From: a virus
Lineage: Duplodnaviria > Heunggongvirae > Uroviricota > Caudoviricetes
DNA: 8,684 nt
IMG/VR virus record: IMGVR_UViG_2909246061_000003
Location: 1-8,684 of that record
Direction: 5' to 3' (one strand)
Shown here: positions 1 through 8,684 of the stretch, in pieces
Numbering within the stretch: the first letter of the stretch is position 1
How the letters are laid out: the number at the start of each line of letters is the position of its first letter
The notes under the pieces: generated by a model
Databases searched by the model: none
What the model was told of the DNA's origin: nothing
Seen by the model: the letters and a program-made list of their open reading frames with translations, nothing else
Position numbers and translations under genes: made by a program

Positions 1-192
1 TCAGGAGCATTTCTGATTAACACCACCGTTAAGAATCCACCCCTCAACAGCTTCACGAAGGTATGATTTGGGGTGGGTTCTGACTGGCTTCGGAAATCCG
101 TGCCGTTTGGTATAGTTCCAGATTGTCTGACGTGATGAAACACCGAGCTTGTTCATCACTTCTTTCTCAGGAATCAGGCTGGTATCGGTCAT
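1..192 (-). CDS. Excisionase-like small DNA-binding protein (lambda Xis / AlpA-like), 63 aa
   Basis: Complete ORF on the minus strand: ATG at 192-190, TGA at 3-1. GGAG lies about 7 nt upstream of the ATG (revcomp of 201-204). The motif W-x-Y-x3-G-FPKPV-x-Y-x3-V-x-W resembles the winged-helix core of lambda Xis and AlpA-type regulators, from memory. Position at the prophage edge fits int lying further left, off-window. Confidence 0.55.
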   Translation of the reverse strand: MTDTSLIPEKEVMNKLGVSSRQTIWNYTKRHGFPKPVRTHPKSYLREAVEGWILNGGVNQKCS

Positions 193-204
193 CTTAATTC
201 TCCA

Positions 205-231
205 GGCAAAAAGAAACCGCCATCAGGCGGC
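205..231 (-). terminator. Intrinsic terminator-like hairpin between the 55-aa ORF and the excisionase-like gene
   Basis: Minus-strand reading: stem CCGCC, loop TGAT, stem GGCGG, then TTTCTTTTT (plus 217-221 pairs with 226-230; A-run at plus 208-216). The stop codon of the upstream 55-aa ORF sits in the loop. Confidence 0.45.
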
Positions 232-390
232 TTGGTGTTCTTTCAGTTCTTCAATTCGAATATTGGTTACGTCTGCATGCGCTATCTGCGCCCATATCAT
301 CCAGTGGTTATAGCAGTCGTTGATGCCCTCTGCTTCGATAACTCTGTTGAATGGTTCTCCATTCCATTCACCTGTGACTCGGAAGTGCAT
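223..390 (-). CDS. Hypothetical small protein, 55 aa (below the ORF-track length cutoff)
   Basis: Hand translation of the minus strand: ATG at 390-388, TGA at 225-223, GGAG about 7 nt upstream. Product MHFRVTGEWNGEPFNRVIEAEGINDCYNHWMIWAQIAHADVTNIRIEELKEHQAA. No family recognised. Confidence 0.3.
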   Translation of the reverse strand: MHFRVTGEWNGEPFNRVIEAEGINDCYNHWMIWAQIAHADVTNIRIEELKEHQAA

Positions 391-403
391 TTATCATCTC
401 CAT

Positions 404-427
404 AAAACAAAACTCGCCGTAGCGAGT
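404..427 (-). terminator. Intrinsic terminator-like hairpin (proximal of a tandem pair)
   Basis: Plus 412-417 ACTCGC pairs with 422-427 GCGAGT, loop CGTA. On the minus strand the hairpin is followed by TTTTGTTTT. Confidence 0.45.
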
Positions 428-440
428 TCAGATAAAAGAA

Positions 441-459
441 AACCCGCACTCGGCGGGTT
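441..459 (-). terminator. Intrinsic terminator-like hairpin (distal of a tandem pair)
   Basis: Plus 441-447 AACCCGC pairs with 453-459 GCGGGTT, loop ACTCG. On the minus strand the 7-bp GC-rich stem is followed by TTTTCTTTTAT. Confidence 0.5.
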
Positions 460-479
460 CGCATTCGTTCAAATTGCGT

Positions 480-578
480 TTACTTCTTGGCGTTCTGTTC
501 ATCCATATCGATATACCATGGGTTGCTTCCCTTGGGCATGTTTAACGACTGCTCGCGATAGTATCTGATGCGCTCCAT
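480..578 (-). CDS. Possible cIII-like micro-ORF, 32 aa (very tentative)
   Basis: Hand translation: ATG 578-576, TAA 482-480. Product MERIRYYREQSLNMPKGSNPWYIDMDEQNAKK. Loose resemblance to the ERI...LN.PG.PKNGSN stretch of lambda/P22 cIII from memory. No convincing SD. Lies in the leftward operon where cIII would be expected. Confidence 0.2.
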   Translation of the reverse strand: MERIRYYREQSLNMPKGSNPWYIDMDEQNAKK

Positions 579-738
579 GAAATACTCGCGTGAGTGCTCA
601 GGTTGCTCTCATGATACCTGCTCAGTGATAACAGGTATGTTAAGGCGCTCTCTGTACTCCATGCCTGATGCTGCAAGGTCAACGTTTACCTTGTTCTGTT
701 TTTCTTTCGATTTCTCGGCGATGTTATGCCTGACATTG

Positions 739-981
739 TCAACCCGCCTCCTTCTGAACATAACGGTTATAAATCAGTCCCTGAGGGCCATAAGGAAGCG
801 GGATGTGCAACTCCTCTGGTTCAGAAACTATCCATTCTCCGGCCATCTCCGCTGGAGAGGTAATGATAAGTTGTTTGCTAATAAAAGGACCACTCCTCTC
901 AACAACAAGCTTACCATCTTCATTAATAAAAGCTTGGATGTCAGGTGTGCTTCCACACTTGGTGATGCAGCGTTTGAACAT
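739..981 (-). CDS. Hypothetical protein, 80 aa (ORF-track frame 739..1023; internal ATG with SD preferred)
   Basis: Minus-strand ORF. The ATG at 981-979 is preceded by GGGGGA at about 6 nt; the upstream ATG at 1023 has no SD. Product begins MFKRCITKCGSTPDIQAFINEDGKLVVERSG. No family recognised. Confidence 0.4.
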   Translation of the reverse strand: MFKRCITKCGSTPDIQAFINEDGKLVVERSGPFISKQLIITSPAEMAGEWIVSEPEELHIPLPYGPQGLIYNRYVQKEAG

Positions 982-1107
982 TTTGTGTCCCCCCATTTTA
1001 TGTACGGGGTAATTATAACACATTGAAATATAGTAATATTTGACGTAGATTTCTTTTGATCTATAAGCGATTTTTTAATGCTTTTAAGTTATAAATACTT
1101 GTTTTCA

Positions 1108-1524
1108 TCACCCATCTTGCTGCGGTGCTACTATTGAAAAGTGCTCACACCCTTTAGCCCAAATAGTTTTGATAGTTGTCCAACTGACTGGAACCTTGAT
1201 TTCGATTCTCCCGCTACAGTCACAAGTTTCGCAATCATCATCACCAAAGCATTCCGGGCAGCTTATAAACGTAGTTTCTGAAAATTCACCGGATAGCACA
1301 CCCTTAGCGCCGTTCTCGGCTGTTAGTCTCTTCGGCACCATGACCCAACCATCCGGAATTACCGGAGAGTTGCCGGGTTCTTTAATGTGCAAGCGAGGCT
1401 CACCATCTTTTGGCTCAGGCCACTGGCGCTCCATGTTGATCTTCAATTTATCTTCCATAGCAGCGGTAATTTCAGCATCGCTGATGCCAGCACGGCGCTG
1501 TGCATCCCACAACAGGAAATGCAT
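1108..1524 (-). CDS. Hypothetical Cys-rich protein, 138 aa, possibly the 3' remnant of a longer gene
   Basis: Minus-strand ORF with protein-like composition, whereas the overlapping plus ORF 1169..1558 is Ser/Leu-rich and starts on TTG. C-terminal CPEC-x6-CETCDC cluster suggests metal binding. No SD before the ATG at 1524. The frame is open upstream only to a stop at 1557-1555, right at the junction where lambda-like sequence begins. Confidence 0.4.
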   Translation of the reverse strand: MHFLLWDAQRRAGISDAEITAAMEDKLKINMERQWPEPKDGEPRLHIKEPGNSPVIPDGWVMVPKRLTAENGAKGVLSGEFSETTFISCPECFGDDDCETCDCSGRIEIKVPVSWTTIKTIWAKGCEHFSIVAPQQDG

Positions 1525-1566
1525 ACAGTACGGAACTAAACGCGGAAAAGCCGCTTAAGACATTCC

Positions 1567-1598
1567 CGCTCTTACACATCCCAGCCCTGAAAAAGGGC
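1567..1598 (+). promoter_or_regulatory. nutR-like N-utilisation site: boxA CGCTCTTAC (1567-1575) and boxB GCCCTGAAAAAGGGC (1584-1598)
   Basis: Seen directly. Matches lambda nutR boxA/boxB as I recall them, with about one mismatch in the spacer. The following leader down to the cII ATG also looks lambda-like. Confidence 0.8.
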
Positions 1599-1677
1599 AT
1601 CAAATTAAACCACACCTATGGTGTATGCATTTATTTGCATACATTCAATCAATTGTTATCTAAGGAAATACTTACAT

Positions 1678-1956
1678 ATGCAACTTACAAGTACTCGCAA
1701 GAAAGCGAATGCAATTACAAGCAACATCCTGAATCGAATTGCTGTACGTGGTCAGCGAAAGGTTGCCGACGCGTTAGGGGTTAATGAATCGCAAATTTCG
1801 CGATGGAAAGACAGCTTCATCCCCAAAATGGGAATGCTTCTGGCTGTTCTTGAATGGGGTGTTGAAGACGAGGAGTTGGCGGAACTGGCTAAGCAAGTAG
1901 CCAGAATGCTGACAAAAGAAAAAGCCCCGAAGAACGGCGAATTCTTCGAGGCCTGA
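1678..1956 (+). CDS. cII: Transcriptional activator CII homologue, 92 aa
   Basis: The stretch SQISRWK...IPK..MLLAVLEWGV.D...A.LA.QVA..LT..K.P is collinear with lambda CII. ATG at 1678 is preceded by AAGGAAA. The ORF-track start at 1618 is an upstream non-ATG extension and is not used. The N-terminal 25 residues differ from lambda while the leader matches, indicating a mosaic. Confidence 0.85.
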   Translation: MQLTSTRKKANAITSNILNRIAVRGQRKVADALGVNESQISRWKDSFIPKMGMLLAVLEWGVEDEELAELAKQVARMLTKEKAPKNGEFFEA

Positions 1957-1990
1957 TGTAGAAAGACTGGATCAATCCACAGGAGTAATT

Positions 1991-2152
1991 ATGACAAAAC
2001 GTCGTAAGAAATACCAGGAAAAAGAAGAGATTCGACACCCTGATTCACCTGAGGGATTAGTGGTAGCCGCAGCAAATAACAGGGCGTTCGCAGAACGCCT
2101 TGTTGGTGTTTACAGACTAGCCAAAGCAGGAGTGAAACATGGGCGTCGTTAA
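1991..2152 (+). CDS. Small basic ORF, 53 aa, using a lambda-O-like RBS and start context
   Basis: AGGAG at 1981-1985, then ATG at 1991. Product MTKRRKKYQEKEEIRHPDSPEGLVVAAANNRAFAERLVGVYRLAKAGVKHGRR. Overlaps the O-like start by 14 nt. Could be a real small gene or a by-product of a recombination junction. Confidence 0.3.
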   Translation: MTKRRKKYQEKEEIRHPDSPEGLVVAAANNRAFAERLVGVYRLAKAGVKHGRR

Positions 2153-2936
2153 GTTAGCTGATTACAGGCCTCAACTGGAGGTCGTGGAGCATCGCGTGGC
2201 AGATACCGAAGATGGTTTCATGCGCATTGCTAACGAGATTACCGACAGTCTGCTGATGGCTGATTTAACCGTCCGGCAGTTGAAGGTGATGCTCGCTATC
2301 ATGCGCAAGACATACGGATTCAATAAGCCGATGGATCGACTCACAAACACGCAGATAGCAGCCATGACAGGTATTCATCACACTCATGTTTGCGCTGCCA
2401 AGCGCCAGCTTATCGAGCGTAAATTCCTCATTGCTGATGGCGTGAAAATCGGAGTGAACAAGGTGGTTTCTCAGTGGATTAGCCAGGACAGCTTAACATT
2501 AGCTAAAACAGCTAATAAAACATTAGCCAAGTCGGCTAATGGGTATAAGCCAAGTCAGCTAAACACAAAAGACAATATACAAAAGACAATAAATACAAAT
2601 ACCCCCTTACCCCCTAACGGGGGCGGCGATGGGCAGGTTAAACCTGAACGTCGCAAGGCAGAACGAATCGACTACGAATCCTTCCTGAACGCCTACAACA
2701 CCGAAGTCGGTGACAGACTGCCACACGCTGTTGCGGTCAACGAGAAACGCAAACGCCGCCTGAAGAAAATCATCCCGCAACTGAAAACGCCAAACGTGGA
2801 CGGTTTCAGAGCGTATGTCAGGGCGTTTGTGCATCAGGCCAAGCCGTTTTACTTCGGAGACAACGACACGGGCTGGACGGCCGATTTTGATTACCTGCTG
2901 AGGGAAGACTCGTTAACGGGAGTTCGGGAAGCGTAG
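2139..2936 (+). CDS. Replication initiator, lambda O-like N-terminal domain, 265 aa
   Basis: AGGAG at 2128-2132, ATG at 2139, in-frame stop immediately upstream. N-terminal half is collinear with lambda O (RVAD.EDG...L...L..ADLT.RQ.KV.LAI.RKTYG.NKPMDR.T..Q). C-terminal half is not recognisably lambda O. Internal iteron-like repeats are listed separately. Confidence 0.8.
   Translation: MGVVKLADYRPQLEVVEHRVADTEDGFMRIANEITDSLLMADLTVRQLKVMLAIMRKTYGFNKPMDRLTNTQIAAMTGIHHTHVCAAKRQLIERKFLIADGVKIGVNKVVSQWISQDSLTLAKTANKTLAKSANGYKPSQLNTKDNIQKTINTNTPLPPNGGGDGQVKPERRKAERIDYESFLNAYNTEVGDRLPHAVAVNEKRKRRLKKIIPQLKTPNVDGFRAYVRAFVHQAKPFYFGDNDTGWTADFDYLLREDSLTGVREA
2477..2603 (+). repeat. Origin-like array inside the O-like gene: four iteron-like repeats followed by an AT-rich tract
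   Basis: Repeats of about 21-24 bp, each with internal dyad ATTAGC...GCTAAT: 2477-2497, 2497-2520, 2521-2544, 2545-2568. Then an A/T-rich tract to about 2603 (AAAAGACAATATACAAAAGACAATAAATACAAATAC). Same architecture as ori-lambda inside O. Confidence 0.5.
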
Positions 2937-2962
2937 CTAAATTTCATTCGCCAAAAAGCCCG

Positions 2963-3541
2963 ATGATGAGCGACTCACCACGGGCTACGGCTTCTGACTC
3001 TCTTTCCGGTACTGATGTGATGGCTGCTATGGGGATGGCGCAATCACAAGCCGGATTCGGTATGGCTGCATTCTGTGGTAAGCACGAACTCAGCCAGAAC
3101 GACAAACAAAAGGCTATCAACTATCTGATGCAATTTGCACACAAGGTATCGGGGAAATACCGTGGTGTGGCAAAGATCGAAGGAAATACTAAGGCAAAGG
3201 TACTGCAAGTGCTCGCAACATTCGCTTATGCGGATTATTGCCGTAGTGCCGCGACGCCGGGGGCAAGATGCAGAGATTGCCACGGTACAGGCCGTGTGGT
3301 TGATATAGCAAAAACAGAGCAGTGGGGGAGAGTTGTTGAGAAAGAGTGCGGAAGATGCAAAGGTGTCGGCTATTCAAGGATGCCAGCAAGCGCCGCATAT
3401 CGCGCTGTAACGATGCTAATTCCAAACCTCACCCAACCCACCTGGTCACGCACTGTTAAGCCGCTGTATGACGCTCTGGTGGTGCAATGCCACAAAGAAG
3501 AGTCAATCGCAGACAACATTTTGAACGCGGTCACACGTTAG
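2963..3541 (+). CDS. Q: Late antiterminator Q, lambda-type, read from the first in-frame ATG (192 aa); native start codon apparently lost
   Basis: Product has the Zn-binding CRDCHGTG...CGRCKGVG module and is collinear with lambda Q as I recall it. The frame is open upstream to 2891 and encodes ...VAKFHSPKSP before the Met-Met at 2963, matching lambda Q residues about 6-15, but no ATG/GTG/TTG or SD is present there. Only 26 bp separate it from the O-like stop. Confidence 0.75.
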   Translation: MMSDSPRATASDSLSGTDVMAAMGMAQSQAGFGMAAFCGKHELSQNDKQKAINYLMQFAHKVSGKYRGVAKIEGNTKAKVLQVLATFAYADYCRSAATPGARCRDCHGTGRVVDIAKTEQWGRVVEKECGRCKGVGYSRMPASAAYRAVTMLIPNLTQPTWSRTVKPLYDALVVQCHKEESIADNILNAVTR

Positions 3542-3583
3542 CAGCATGATTGCCACGGATGGCAACATATTAACGGCATAATA

Positions 3584-3612
3584 TTGACTTTTTGAATAAA
3601 GTTGGGTAAATT
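3584..3612 (+). promoter_or_regulatory. pR'-like late promoter (-35 TTGACT 3584-3589, 17-bp spacer, -10 TAAATT 3607-3612) with adjacent qut-like region
   Basis: Hexamers and spacing seen directly. The surrounding sequence closely resembles the lambda pR' region from memory, up to about 3640, where similarity ends. Confidence 0.6.
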
Positions 3613-3646
3613 TGACATCAACGATGGATAAATGCACTCGTTAAAT

Positions 3647-3685
3647 AAAGCCCTGAGTTAATAGCTCTGGGCTTTTTGCGTTTTA
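3647..3685 (+). terminator. Intrinsic terminator closing a short leader transcript from the pR'-like promoter
   Basis: Stem 3650-3657 GCCCTGAG pairs with 3665-3672 CTCTGGGC (one T-T mismatch), loop TTAATA, then TTTTTGCGTTTT. Confidence 0.5.
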
Positions 3686-3958
3686 AGCACGGCCTTTCTG
3701 AAAGCACATCAAACCAAATACCAGACAGACAATACCCTCACCTTATAGGGACACTTGCTTCAACAGGAGGGACGGTTAGGACCGCCATCCTATATGGGAC
3801 GACCGCCAATAGAACCACGGCCACGGTAATAGAACTCTTCAGAGATGGCACAGTCGCTGCCGGGCATACTTTTACGCTGAGAGATATTTCTTTTGGAGAC
3901 AGCAGGGCTCTAGGGGCTGATTTTGGAGGCTCCTTCGGGAATCTGTATAAGTTCTAAT

Positions 3959-3983: not shown

Positions 3984-5585
3984 TTACAGATAAGCGACGA
4001 AATAGCCGTCAATTTTCTTTATTTTAAGTTTGTCGCCATAGATGGATAGGGGCTTCTTGAGCCATGTATCGTCTGTGGCGACATATATCTCATTATTCCT
4101 TAGCGTACCCTTAGCCTTAATTTCGGCTATATATCTTTTGTTATTATCTATCGCTGCTTTGTCTGCTCTAGCAAAATACCCAAAATTAAGTTTCATTTTT
4201 TCTGAAGAAGCAAATTCAGCAAATGGGAGCCAATGTCTTAAGCTGAACTCATCGTAATCAGTGGTTATGATAGTGTCCTTCCCTTTGGAGATGACTTCCC
4301 ACTCTTTACTCAACATTTGAGAGCTGTATGGCTTACCAGTATATATCTCTCGAACGGCTTTGAAAAAGTTGCTTTCATCCGCCACTGATATTAATAGAAT
4401 AGGGAGCAAGACATAAGCAGAACTTTTCGAGGTTTTTGCTAAGTATGCCAAAACAATCAACATCAAGATCATCGTCACCGGCCAGAAGAACCGACCAGAA
4501 GAGCGAAAAACGCCACCAACCTTCATGAGAAAGTCATTCATTGGAATTTCAATGAGATTAAATCCATAAAAGTTAATTCGATAAGTTATAGAAACGGCAG
4601 CCAGAACTAAACAGAAGTACAATACAGGAGATTTTATAATTCTCCTGAAATCTATGGACTTTCTTAAAGAGGAGTCTATCAGCATAAACAAAAATAGCGT
4701 GATGATGCCTAATCCTAGATAATTTATACCCTCAAAGTTAGCCTGTTGACTCCCATGACTCAAGATAAGATGTGAGTATCTCTGGTCTCCTGGGTTGAAC
4801 CAGCCGGCAAGATCCATGTTAAGGAATCCGAATCCAGGGTATGGGTCAGAGCCTTTAATAACAAAGTATCCGGTAGCATACATTGCGAGAAATATTAACA
4901 CAGAGTAACACGCGAAAAAGAATGCCGATCTTTTTAAAGATAAACGGTTTGTGTTCAGTTTGTTTAAAATGTCAAATGCAAAAATTAAATACACCATTAT
5001 CAGCAAATATGCATGAATGGTGACTGAGAGAACTAAAATAGCAGCCCATCTTTTAAAGCAAAAAGACCTATTGATATAAAGGTAAAATCCAAAAAGAATT
5101 AGCCACTGAGCGCCTAATGCAAAGTGACCACCGGCACGATTTAAGAATATTGGTGCAATGCAGAAGAAGCATGAACCTATTGCAGAGAATATCTCATCCT
5201 TTGTTAACTTACGAAGAACCAAATACGCAGAAAACGTCATAAGCACAAAGCAAAGATACATCCAAAGCCCGTGATATTGAAATCTGGCGGGGAGAAAGTC
5301 GCTAAAAGGCTTGAATATGAAGGCCATAATTGGGATTGAGTCGGTGTAAACGATAGACCCACCTACACCCATCCCATAGTTATAATTTAGGCCAAGGGGC
5401 CACTGCAACAACGGAGTATTTCGGAAGAAATTCCATCCTGACCAGCTTTGACCAGGATCACCTATCATAAGCCATCCAACTCTTTTGAAGTCCAGCACAT
5501 TCACACCAACATACATAGCAAACATTGATGTCGTGAATATAAACATAAATAAGGACGCTAAAATCCTTTTTTGTGCCTTAGTCAT
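3984..5585 (-). CDS. Serotype-specific O-antigen glucosyltransferase, GtrC-type polytopic membrane protein, 533 aa
   Basis: Third gene of a gtrA-gtrB-gtr(type) operon. The ATG at 5585 overlaps the gtrB stop by 8 nt (ATGACTAA). N-terminal two-thirds has many hydrophobic segments; C-terminal hydrophilic domain of about 130 aa. Markedly AT-rich codon usage compared with neighbours. No close relative recognised from memory. Confidence 0.7.
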
Positions 5586-6501
5586 TGTGTTTATTCCTTA
5601 AGATGTAACGAGGCCTAGCCTTGACTTCAATATATATTCTTCCGATATATTCACCAAGAACGCCAATGCCGATAAGTTGAATCCCGCCCAAGAACAGGAT
5701 TGAAACAAGGAGTGAAGGATATCCTCTCACGGCATTTCCAAATGCAATAGTATCGATGATCATCCAGGCTCCGTAGATAAATGCAAGCCCAGCGACTAGT
5801 AATCCAATATAAGTCCACATACGTAGAGGGAATGTAGAAAAGCTAGTAATCCCTTCTAGAGCTAAATTCCAAAGCTTCCAGCCATTAAACTTTGTGCAAC
5901 CAGCGACTCGCTCAGCTCTGGCGTATTCTACTACATCTGTTTTCCCGCCAACCCAAGACAAAACGCCCTTCATGAACAAGTTTCTTTCTGGCATTAGTTT
6001 GATATTTTCTACCACTTCTCGTGACATTAAACGGAAGTCACCGACGTTCTCTTCAATTTTGGGATTGCTGATTTTATTGTGTAGCTTATAGAACCACTCA
6101 GCTGATTTTCGCTTTAAACGACCGTCAGTAGACCTGTCTGTACGTTTGGCCAGAACCATATCCGCCCCAGCCTGCCACTTCTCAATTAGGTGGGGGATTA
6201 CTTCAATTGGGTCCTGCAGATCTACATCAATCGGAATGACCGCGTCGCCTGTAGCTTGGTCAAGGCCAGCAAACAAAGCCGGTTCCTTTCCGAAGTTACG
6301 CGTGAAGGAGAGAGGAACTACGAGTGGGTCAGCAATGGCAAGCGCGTTAATAATTGATTCTGTAGCGTCTTTGCTACCGTCGTTAATGAAGACTATTTCG
6401 ACTTCATGCTGCTGAAGCCCTTCAAATTCCCGCACGGTTTTATAGAAGATTGGAATTGCTTCCTCTTCATTAAACACAGGAACGACCAGAGAAATTTTCA
6501 T
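5578..6501 (-). CDS. gtrB: Bactoprenol glucosyltransferase GtrB (GT2 family), 307 aa
   Basis: Near-collinear with Shigella/Salmonella phage GtrB from memory ([23 protein letters not shown]...FINDGSKD...DVDLQDP...). ATG at 6501 overlaps the gtrA stop (ATGA). Confidence 0.9.
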
Positions 6502-6860
6502 TTCACATCCCTAAAGACAATGAACTTTGAATAAATAAACCCGCACACCAGACTGATGGCGGAGAACAGAATTAAGGTGATGATTGGTGCCAGACCAGAT
6601 TTATCCGCCGCCCAACCCACAGCTGCGCTAAGCGTCCCCATAAAGCCGACGTAAAGCATGTATCGCATGGTTGTTGTGGATGACTTAAACGTGAATCTGG
6701 CATTTGCGAAGAAGCTAAATGACACAGCCACAACGAACCCGGCAAAGTTGCCAAGGGCCTGTCCTGTATGGAATGCATAGATGCAAATTGCGAACACTAC
6801 CCAGTGAATGAGCGTGTTAATGACACCTATCGATGTGTACTTGGCGAATAACTTTAACAT
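6498..6860 (-). CDS. gtrA: Bactoprenol-linked glucose translocase (flippase) GtrA, 120 aa
   Basis: From the internal ATG at 6860 the product [23 protein letters not shown]... matches GtrA at its usual 120-aa length. The ORF-track start at 6923 is a GTG extension and is not used. Confidence 0.85.
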
Positions 6861-6936
6861 TATAGAAATCAGTGAATTCGGAAAGGTCTGAAGTGTAGCA
6901 CCACAAACGCTATTGATCGACACCGCCGATCAGTAC

Positions 6937-6950
6937 TACTGTATTAATAT
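6937..6950. promoter_or_regulatory. Left half of an interrupted LexA (SOS) box: TACTGT plus the ATTAATAT centre
   Basis: Joining 6937-6950 to 8275-8280 (removing the IS and one copy of the duplication) gives TACTGTATTAATATACAGTA, i.e. CTGT-N8-ACAG with an AT-rich centre, close to the TACTG(TA)5CAGTA consensus. Confidence 0.6.
6943..6950. repeat. Target-site duplication ATTAATAT, left copy
   Basis: Identical 8-mer directly abuts both IS termini (6943-6950 and 8267-8274). Confidence 0.75.
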
Positions 6951-8266
6951 GGGTCTTCCCTTGTTGTGGTGGCTGAAGGCATGATAATGGTGTATTTAAT
7001 CGCCAGAGGTCACCGCCATGGACGAAAAGTCCCTCTACGCTCATATTCTCAACCTGTCCGATCCGTGGCAGGTAAAGTCCCTTTCTCTCGATGAAAATGC
7101 CGGTTCTGTTACTGTCACTATTGAGATCGCTGAAAACACCCGGCTAGCCTGTCCGGCCTGCGGTAAATCCTGTTCTGTTCACGATCACCGTCATCGTAAA
7201 TGGCGCCATCTTGATACCTGCCAGTTCACCACTATTGTTGAAGCCGATGTTCCACGAATTATGTGTCCGGAGCATGGCTGTCAGACGTTGCCTGTTCCGT
7301 GGGCTGGCCCCGGAAGCCGGTATACGTTGCTGTTCGAATTGTTCGTTCTCTCATGGCTGAAAATCAGCACCGTTGATGCTGTCAGGAAGCAACTTAAGCT
7401 CAGCTGGAATGCGGTTGACGGCATTATGACCCGGGCAGTTAAGCGAGGTCTTGCCCGGATAAAAAAGCCATTATCCGCCCGTCATATGAATGTGGATGAG
7501 GTCGCCTTTAAAAAAGGACATCGTTACATAACGGTGATCTCCGATCGCGATGGTCGGGCGCTGGCCTTAACGGATGATCGCGGCACAGAGAGTCTTGCCG
7601 GCTATCTTCGCACACTCACTGATGGGCAGTTGCTGGCTATCAAAACGCTCTCAATGGACATGAACGCGGGCTATATAAGAGCAGCGCGCATCCACTTACC
7701 CAGCGCGGTTGAGAAAATCGCCTTTGACCGCTTCCATGTGGCGAAGCAACTGGGCGAGGTAGTTGATAAAACCCGTCAGAATGAACATCCGCACCTCCCT
7801 GTTGAAAGCCGACGCCAGGCAAAAGGAACCCGCTTCCTGTGGCAGTACAGTGATAAGTGGATGACTGAATCCCGGCAGGAAAAGCTGATGTGGCTGCGTG
7901 CACAGATGAAGCTGACGAGCCAGTGCTGGGCGCTGAAAGAGCTGGCAAAGGATATCTGGAACAGGCCATGGAGCGAGGAAAGGCGGAGTGACTGGCAGAG
8001 ATGGCTGGCGCTGGCGGCTAACAGTGACGTTCCCATGATGAAAAATGCTGCGAAAACGATAGGAAAAAGGCTGTACGGGATCCTGAATGCGATGCGACAC
8101 AGTGTCTCAAACGGAAATGCGGAGGCACTTAACAGCAAGATAAGGTTGCTGAGAATAAAAGCCAGGGGATACCGAAACCGGGAGCGCTTTAAACTGGGAG
8201 TGATGTTCCACTACGGTAAGCTGAATATGGAGTTCTGAGCCTTCCCACCATGATCGGGGAAGACCC
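6951..8266 (+). mobile_element. ISL3-family insertion sequence, about 1.3 kb, with imperfect terminal inverted repeats
   Basis: Left end GGGTCTTCCC...GGTGG..GAAGGC (from 6951) mirrors the reverse complement of the right end (...GCCTTCCCACC...GGGGAAGACCC ending at 8266). Contains a single transposase ORF and is flanked by an 8-bp direct repeat. Confidence 0.75.
7018..8238 (+). CDS. ISL3-family transposase, 406 aa
   Basis: ATG at 7018. N-terminal Cys/His zinc-ribbon (CPACG...C..H.H) followed by a long catalytic region, typical of ISL3-type transposases from memory. The three antisense ORFs within it are taken as artefacts. Confidence 0.85.
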   Translation: MDEKSLYAHILNLSDPWQVKSLSLDENAGSVTVTIEIAENTRLACPACGKSCSVHDHRHRKWRHLDTCQFTTIVEADVPRIMCPEHGCQTLPVPWAGPGSRYTLLFELFVLSWLKISTVDAVRKQLKLSWNAVDGIMTRAVKRGLARIKKPLSARHMNVDEVAFKKGHRYITVISDRDGRALALTDDRGTESLAGYLRTLTDGQLLAIKTLSMDMNAGYIRAARIHLPSAVEKIAFDRFHVAKQLGEVVDKTRQNEHPHLPVESRRQAKGTRFLWQYSDKWMTESRQEKLMWLRAQMKLTSQCWALKELAKDIWNRPWSEERRSDWQRWLALAANSDVPMMKNAAKTIGKRLYGILNAMRHSVSNGNAEALNSKIRLLRIKARGYRNRERFKLGVMFHYGKLNMEF

Positions 8267-8274
8267 ATTAATAT
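8267..8274. repeat. Target-site duplication ATTAATAT, right copy
   Basis: See left copy. Confidence 0.75.
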
Positions 8275-8280
8275 ACAGTA
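8267..8280. promoter_or_regulatory. Right half of the interrupted LexA box: ATTAATAT centre plus ACAGTA
   Basis: See left half. Sits about 18 nt upstream of the RBS/ATG of the UmuD'-like gene; TAATAT within it could serve as a -10. Confidence 0.6.
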
Positions 8281-8297
8281 ACTATCGGAGGTGAGTT

Positions 8298-8684
8298 ATG
8301 GGATTCCCGAGTCCGGCTCAAGACTATGTTGAAGAGCGCGTATTGCTCGACAAGCGCATCATAAGCAGACCAGCGGCCACGTATTTCATGAGAGCGGGTG
8401 CAACGCATCACCGCGAAGGCATCCTGAATGGTGCTCTTCTGGTAGTGGATGCATCGCTATCACCATGTGACGGCTCGTTGCTGGTTTGCAGAATGGAAGG
8501 TGAGCTGAGGATTAAGCGATATCGCAAATCACCAAAGCCTCACCTGGAGGATTTGCAGACGGGAAGGCGTGAGGAGATACCGGCACACGATGACGGCACG
8601 AGTCCGGATGCGATATTTGGTGTGATCACCTACATCATAAACGATGCACGCTCTGGCGAGTTTGATGATTGTCTGATTATGTGA
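8298..8684 (+). CDS. UmuD'-like protein (peptidase S24 fold, natively lacking the N-terminal arm; phage P1 HumD-like), 128 aa
   Basis: GGAGGTGA RBS, ATG at 8298, in-frame stop at 8292-8294. Product begins MGFPSPAQDY, which corresponds to the GFPSPA segment immediately after the RecA-mediated cleavage site of UmuD/MucA. The rest is collinear with UmuD/MucA from memory, including the conserved Lys (RIKRY), but the GDSM Ser motif is replaced by GATHH. TGA ends exactly at the window edge. Confidence 0.75.
   Translation: MGFPSPAQDYVEERVLLDKRIISRPAATYFMRAGATHHREGILNGALLVVDASLSPCDGSLLVCRMEGELRIKRYRKSPKPHLEDLQTGRREEIPAHDDGTSPDAIFGVITYIINDARSGEFDDCLIM

Follow-up and report, generated by a model that had tools for sequence, protein, structure and literature searches.

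Why should an insertion sequence (IS) lie at the exact centre of a LexA box, and is that position an accident or a rule? The question is raised by a stretch of 8,684 nucleotides (the window) that is filed as virus record IMGVR_UViG_2909246061_000003 and corresponds to positions 1840039-1848722 of the Escherichia coli E308 chromosome (NZ_CP030281.1). Between a gtr operon and humD, a prophage gene for a UmuD'-like protein, the window contains a copy of ISKox3, a member of the ISL3 family. Here, comparison with IS-free strains reveals that ISKox3 recently entered the LexA operator of humD, exactly between CTGT and ACAG and with the 8-bp spacer duplicated. The element and the split operator are laid out as follows:

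6937-6942, no strand: left half-site of the split LexA box, TACTGT (the box is intact in the IS-free strain TUM12357)
6943-6950, no strand: left copy of the target-site duplication, ATTAATAT, which is the N8 spacer of the box
6951-8266, plus strand: ISKox3, ISL3 family, 1316 bp (RefSeq label: ISL3-like element ISKox3 family)
6951-6972, plus strand: left terminal inverted repeat, GGGTCTTCCCTTGTTGTGGTGG
7018-8238, plus strand: transposase gene (tnp), 406 amino acids (aa), with zinc ribbon, helix-turn-helix (HTH) and DDE_Tnp_ISL3 domains (Pfam, NCBIfam)
8245-8266, minus strand: right terminal inverted repeat
8267-8274, no strand: right copy of the target-site duplication, ATTAATAT
8275-8280, no strand: right half-site of the split LexA box, ACAGTA

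The identity of the element is clear from its architecture. It is 1316 bp long, encodes a single transposase, begins with GG in its inverted repeats, both of which read GGGTCTTCCC...TGGTGG, and is flanked by an 8-bp duplication. The transposase is a DDE enzyme with a zinc ribbon and an HTH, its Pfam domains including PF01610 (5.9e-56), PF13542 and PF14690 (DDE_Tnp_ISL3, HTH_Tnp_ISL3 and Zn_ribbon_ISL3 are among those found), and it scores 323 bits against NCBIfam transpos_ISL3, for which the cut-off is 180. Nucleotide identity to RefSeq-annotated ISKox3 copies on plasmids and chromosomes is 98.4-100% over the 1316 bp, and reaches 100% for the copy that plasmid pTB211 carries in another chicken isolate from China.

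The state of the locus before insertion can be read directly from E. coli TUM12357, 1506 and PSS-10, in which both flanks are 100% identical and exactly 1324 bp, the IS plus one repeat, are absent. The empty site of TUM12357 reads ...cagtacTACTGTATTAATATACAGTAactatcggaggtgagttATG and contains the intact 20-mer TACTGTATTAATATACAGTA, which has the TACTGT(AT)4ACAGTA form and CTGT-N8-ACAG core of a gammaproteobacterial LexA box and differs from the consensus TACTGTATATATATACAGTA at two positions, boxes being scored here by mismatches to the consensus and not by a published LexA matrix. A match with three or fewer mismatches is expected 0.00 times in 200 shuffles of the 15.6-kb TUM12357 locus. The rebuilt box ends 17 nt before the humD ATG, a position at the start of a DNA-damage gene; in Salmonella, the corresponding distances for umuD, yebG, dinI and sulA are 15-21 bp (PMC8072944 Table 1). 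In the window itself, no intact CTGT-N8-ACAG is left, and a scan found no LexA-like site within the IS or at either junction. A sequence-only reading of the window had drawn the IS limits at 6951-8266, equated the duplication with the centre of the box, rebuilt the box at 18 of 20 consensus positions and assigned one half-site to each flank. The inverted repeats, the duplication and the IS-free strains bear out all of this, and TUM12357 carries the very 20-mer that had been rebuilt.

To compare other copies, viral, genome and metagenome collections were scanned for the exact 25-nt left end of the IS, counting exact matches only and removing duplicates by flank. The flanks of all 112 copies that share this end were read. 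Outside one symbiont genome (Candidatus Symbiopectobacterium), these yield 65 distinct left flanks, in which positions -12 to -9 are C in 64, T in 65, G in 65 and T in 62; CTGT occupies these positions in 61 of the 65 (94%) and appears in no other register (binomial P = 2.6e-138, background 0.0045). On the right, positions +9 to +12 among 29 distinct flanks are ACAG in 24, ACAT in three and CCAG in one. Over all fetched loci, a perfect 8-bp duplication of the spacer is present at about 38 distinct complete sites, about 33 of which retain CTG and CAG on both sides. At intact copies the duplication is always the N8 of CTGT-N8-ACAG, and orientation relative to the SOS gene is unbiased (9 versus 7). 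A shared target, a fixed register and a frequency far above chance are what mark a target-restricted IS. A second, independent event in Enterobacter phage BHUENT6 illustrates the pattern: there ISKox3 lies between aACTGTATATATAT and ATATATATACAGTA, adjoining a gtrA gene in the opposite orientation. From the flanks and duplications, the staggered cuts are seen to fall at the inner edges of the half-sites, with the element entering in either orientation.

The same rule extends to relatives, whose transposases were taken from a protein search for homologues and whose loci were then read for flanks. Elements with transposases 86%, 73%, 71% (ISSoEn4 of Sodalis, and an E. coli element) and 65% (Providencia) identical have CTGN-N8-NCAG in register; one at 48% reads TACTGT ATGGATGA, IS, ATGGATGA ACAGGT; and relatives at 46%, 45% and 44%, and one at 38%, follow the same target rule. 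The ISCfr12, ISEc53 and pTB211 copies likewise obey CTGT-N8-ACAG. By contrast, P0090 (49%) and L171 (41%) have verified 8-bp duplications, GCTTTTTC and AGAAAAGC, and no motif; P0112 (46%) also has no motif, its duplication being unverified. In a neighbour-joining tree the targeting elements form one clade, with P0090, L171 and P0112 as its sister group, so that the non-targeting side of the tree consists of three sequences only. By the evidence of their flanks, SOS boxes of the form CTGT-N8-ACAG are nearly the sole target of ISKox3 and of a monophyletic ISL3 clade, in which ISCfr12, ISEc53 and ISSoEn4 are joined by metagenomic, Providencia and Yersinia-type relatives with as little as about 44% identity. 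The sequence-only reading had treated the humD insertion as a singular accident; on this point it does not stand, the survey revealing the normal behaviour of this IS clade.

How, then, is the target chosen? To judge from the flanks, transposition itself is the step that selects the site, with single-base sequence specificity, because selection after insertion cannot fix a register and orientation is unbiased. The proposal that we favour, and consider somewhat probable, is that a two-fold symmetric transposase complex itself reads CTG...CAG and prefers a flexible, A/T-rich spacer. The transposase would, in reading CTG-N10-CAG, mimic the specificity of LexA. Three insertions bear on this point: one inside a P450-like gene at CTGT-CCTTCGGA-ACAG (L054); one inside another open reading frame at CTGT-GCAAATGA-ACAT (L056); and one, of a 46% relative, inside a 421-codon frame at CTGT-AACTGCAA-CCAG (L131). 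All three depart from the LexA consensus at 8-10 positions. Direct read-out is favoured because such non-operator sites within genes, some with GC-rich spacers, still keep the core.

An alternative is that targeting depends on LexA: either the transposase recognises the operator-bound LexA dimer, as an operator hunter, or LexA masks the boxes until it is cleaved and so gates insertion. Consistent with this, base conservation across the occupied sites follows the LexA motif over all 20 bp, with TA at positions 1-2 and an alternating A/T spacer; most of the CTGT-N8-ACAG sites that stand unoccupied at these loci bear little likeness to LexA boxes; and imperfect but genuine operators are struck (uvrA/ssb, CTGA...CCAG; ydjM, CTGG), as is seen where the element expands in the symbiont. 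LexA is, however, unlikely to bind the in-gene sites with GC-rich spacers and 8-10 consensus mismatches, and ACAT half-sites are tolerated although LexA requires the CAG that they disrupt. Bound LexA spans the spacer as well as the two half-sites, and would there obstruct access of the transposase to its cut positions. Further, no meaningful similarity was found between the transposase and E. coli LexA, and neither this comparison nor the Pfam domains revealed a known LexA-interaction module. No relative of known structure was found for the transposase by sequence. Dependence on LexA is a possibility that we regard as unlikely.

Far less credible is random insertion followed by selection, in which a copy would persist only by derepressing or silencing SOS genes or by lying outside genes. 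Survivorship must indeed purge insertions in essential genes, and SOS operators are tolerant; selection cannot, however, set a base-exact register in which the duplication is always the N8 spacer, at unrelated genes and in both orientations, and the in-gene insertions that do persist still carry the motif. A one-off chance insertion by an IS with a mere A/T-rich preference, which could appeal to the A/T-rich box centre and to the 8-bp A/T-rich duplications that ISL3 elements generally give, is refuted by the fixed register in the flank survey and by two further E308 copies in other SOS boxes, and its probability is negligible. Equally remote is the idea that the half-sites belong to ISKox3, which would put its true ends at 6937 and 8280 and reduce the box to an artefact of extended inverted repeats: a repeat search does extend the inverted repeat to 6937-6972 and 8245-8280, and a megablast match to BHUENT6 spans 6938-8280, but at humD and at sbmC the box is complete in alleles that lack the IS, the 8 bases flanking ISKox3 vary among loci while being the same on both sides of each copy, and the BHUENT6 match extends because that copy occupies a similar box, with duplication ATATATAT.

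Several observations weigh against direct read-out and against an exclusive target. The argument for direct read-out is drawn from three or four non-operator sites only, and the site positions outside CTG and CAG closely resemble the LexA motif, as LexA-dependent targeting would also predict. The surveyed copies are natural survivors, and selection against in-gene insertions inflates the share of intergenic SOS boxes among them. Specificity is not absolute, since in Candidatus Symbiopectobacterium 9 of 23 left flanks are without CTG; left and right flanks seldom agree in that genome, so recombination among its IS copies is a plausible source of the motif-less ones. Laboratory insertions of ISKox3, recovered under selection, have been reported in the capsule genes wzc, wza, wzy and wzi and in a glycosyltransferase, with A/T-rich duplications; those in wzy, wza and wzc are ATACATAT, TTATAATT and ATTTGTAA, the outer flanks being unpublished as text (PMC12057282; PMC11836320). 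Finally, the consequences for expression of humD and gtr, discussed below, are conjecture, as promoters could be located on neither side of the insertion. A separate irregularity is seen at L113/L114, which carry the E. coli element with a 71% identical transposase: the right flank reads GTATATAT AT ACAG, with two extra bases, and the rebuilt site is CTGT-N10-ACAG. This spacing could reflect slippage in an AT repeat after insertion or an off-register target.

Taken in aggregate, the humD-box insertion is best explained as one instance of clade-wide SOS-box targeting, with direct read-out as its proposed mechanism and the regulatory consequences set out below; as a whole, this account seems to us highly probable.

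To judge by their neighbouring genes, the occupied boxes are genuine SOS operators. Genes starting within a few tens of bases of such boxes encode UmuD/HumD (10 loci) and DinI-like proteins (7), and others encode SulA, RecA, Cho, DNA polymerase IV (dinB), DinD, a YdjM-type hydrolase and SSB/UvrA; uvrD adjoins a copy of an ISKox3 relative. All eight sampled annotated chromosomal copies in complete E. coli genomes lie in CTGT/CTGG-N8-ACAG: in the dinD box in three strains; in the tisB box in one; in boxes adjacent to prophage integrases in two; and, for the remaining two, in boxes before translesion-polymerase-type genes (one annotated as DNA polymerase V, the other as a UmuD-like S24 peptidase). 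A copy on an IncX3 blaNDM-5 plasmid occupies the box of a umuD-like operon.

Strain E308 itself provides further examples. Its second copy (L175, 16293-17608), 3.3 kb downstream of the window end, splits the sbmC box, lying between TACTGTATATAAAA and ATATAAAAACAGTA; it has the same orientation as sbmC and differs from the window copy at 0 positions, and the sbmC box is intact in an IS-free strain. A third copy lies in the dinD box (L180). These additional copies in the sbmC and dinD boxes, the former with zero differences, point to a recent burst of ISKox3 in E308. In E. coli MY203L1 (L184), a related prophage lies in the dacD attachment region, as does that of the window, and its humD box is also occupied, in the opposite orientation and with duplication ATGCATAT. 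Because this copy differs in both respects from that in the window, the sequences indicate that the humD operator of this prophage family has been struck more than once, independently.

Two side observations concern the same class of boxes. The genome of Candidatus Symbiopectobacterium endolongispinus (L030-L052) contains about 25 copies of the element, with half-boxes adjoining recA, sulA, uvrA, ssb, cho and ydjM. The recA promoter is split by the IS immediately 5' of a TATAAT, and at uvrA and ssb the two halves of one box are now found at separate loci. This suggests that the SOS regulon is nearly saturated in a degenerating symbiont. Separately, a family of phage proteins some 80 aa long (MPRTADIHAAFVAAIELNPKGYRYL...) immediately follows LexA boxes on seven phage contigs (L002, at 3260-3340, L007, L011, L012, L013, L017 and L021). 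The family is unannotated, an NCBIfam search returned no match, and it is presumably an SOS-controlled phage gene.

The regulatory consequences in the window depend on the genes that flank the insertion, which are:

8287-8291, plus strand: Shine-Dalgarno sequence of humD, GGAGG (read from the sequence)
8298-8684, plus strand: humD, HumD-family pre-processed UmuD'-like subunit, 128 aa (Pfam Peptidase_S24, NCBIfam, RefSeq)
6498-6860, minus strand: gtrA, bactoprenol-linked glucose translocase family, first gene of the divergent gtr operon (Pfam GtrA_DPMS_TM; RefSeq start)
5578-6501, minus strand: gtrB-type family 2 glycosyltransferase, annotated yfdH (Pfam)
3984-5585, minus strand: third gene of the gtr cluster, in the gtrC position, DUF6311, 533 aa (Pfam)

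HumD matches NCBIfam NF051876 at 207 bits (cut-off 120), with residues 1-128 aligned to a model of 129 positions, and is therefore full-length. The protein begins MGFPSPA..., at the residue that matches the cleavage product of UmuD, and has no N-terminal cleavable segment, as befits the HumD family. On the other side, PF04138, PF00535 and DUF6311 in three overlapping or adjacent minus-strand genes identify a putative gtrABC operon of the O-antigen glucosylation type, in which the third gene would be the serotype-specific one.

As a result of the insertion, humD would be left with only its Shine-Dalgarno sequence and one half-site, severed from its upstream promoter elements and from LexA; we infer that LexA control of humD is lost. 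The former upstream promoter elements would now lie 1.3 kb away, facing the left end of the IS and reading the same way as tnp. The sequence-only reading had described tnp as co-oriented with the UmuD'-like gene and no terminator as separating them, and both statements hold: a terminator scan found no terminator-like site between the tnp stop codon and humD. Any expression of humD would now depend on transcription that exits the co-oriented, terminator-less IS. Because no terminator follows the IS, read-through into humD is possible, if unproven. Neither a sigma-70 scan nor a relaxed scan of our own revealed a credible sigma-70 promoter for humD, for gtrA or directed outward at the IS end.

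For gtrA, the RefSeq start at 6860 places the beginning of the IS 90 nt upstream, in agreement with the distance of about 90 bp given previously. The earlier suggestion that the insertion may have damaged gtr regulation is, like loss of LexA control and read-through, a reasonable one. The block GTCGATCAA...GTGGTGCTACACT is common to the window and BHUENT6 and lies wholly on the gtrA side of the insertion, and on this account the core gtr promoter is probably intact. Inside this conserved block are two GATC sites, at 6915-6918 and 6928-6931, 13 bp apart. The pair resembles the Dam/OxyR phase-variation regions of Salmonella gtr operons, a likeness offered as a lead only.

The rest of the window (1-3750) is a prophage remnant, in which the antiterminator gene Q (2963-3541) comes directly after cII (1618-1956) and the replication gene O (2139-2936). 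About 4.8 kb of HK544/HK97-type phages, comprising P and the nin region, is absent, and gtrCBA follows Q in place of lysis and structural genes. RefSeq places a DNA polymerase III theta-like pseudogene with an internal stop at 480-761 and a truncated dATP/dGTP pyrophosphohydrolase gene at 1108-1524.

What might an element gain from such a target? SOS boxes would be safe landing sites: they lie between genes, can be dispensed with, occur in every enterobacterial chromosome and are frequent on conjugative plasmids and prophages. Such sites would also favour horizontal spread. Each insertion would also destroy its operator, so that a box could be used once and copy number would be capped by the number of boxes. 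For the host, a clade of IS with the SOS repressor's operator as its target would act as a natural and recurrent editor of the regulon, at umuD/humD, dinB, recA, sulA, tisB and sbmC, and every insertion would rewire a stress-response gene. The arrival of ISKox3 may accordingly alter the mutability, persistence or prophage behaviour of clinical strains. Its clinical reach follows from its presence on globally spread IncX3 blaNDM plasmids and in about one third of complete E. coli genomes: matches to ISKox3 occur in 1712 of 5426 such genomes (median 2 places per genome, maximum 9) and in 1675 plasmid records. If gating by LexA were correct, DNA damage would license transposition, and each stress episode would irreversibly uncouple another SOS gene. 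Whichever way the target is read, the clade offers a compact, single-protein, sequence-specific DNA insertion activity for study, and in annotation half SOS boxes beside ISL3 ends should be taken as split operators.

In the literature, ISKox3 is known for travelling on IncX3 blaNDM plasmids and for actively disrupting capsule genes of Klebsiella, and where it neighbours resistance genes it is treated as an IS like any other. The searchable literature on ISKox3 makes no mention of LexA alongside it, and papers in it that combine ISL3 and LexA are unrelated to targeting; no link of ISL3 elements to SOS boxes was seen there. We could not find a prior description of an SOS-box targeting rule for these elements, with subscription journals and ISfinder notes lying outside the search.

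Comparison with known systems places the ISKox3 clade among several kinds of target-selective element. One kind is the IS that target repetitive extragenic palindromic (REP) sequences and bacterial interspersed mosaic elements (BIMEs), among them IS1397, ISKpn1 and ISPpu9/10 (Tobes and Pareja 2006, PMC1525189), which, like ISKox3, home to a short, palindromic, intergenic, multi-copy sequence and so avoid genes. These elements belong to the IS3 or IS110 families, whereas ISKox3 belongs to ISL3, and their targets are structural repeats of uncertain function, whereas that of ISKox3 is the operator of a global repressor.

A second comparison is with the res-site hunters Tn5053/Tn402, which need resolvase-occupied res sites, and with Tn7, whose TnsD uses attTn7. 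Both choose a conserved functional site, partly via a DNA-bound protein of the host or a plasmid, and so provide the model for targeting guided by LexA. They do so, however, with dedicated targeting proteins (TniQ/TnsD) in multi-gene modules, whereas ISKox3 encodes one protein.

Tn10 (GCTNAGC) and IS30 show preferences for palindromic hot spots. Like ISKox3, they have a symmetric target consensus that is centred on the staggered cut and a symmetric transposase complex. Theirs is a statistical preference among many usable sites, in contrast to the exact, in-register tetranucleotide found in 94% of the independent ISKox3 flanks.

Finally, the struck gene has its own counterpart in phage P1, whose HumD, like that of the window, is a UmuD' analogue made without the N-terminal cleavable peptide. 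Unlike P1 humD, the window gene sits at the end of a lambdoid prophage remnant, beside gtrABC.

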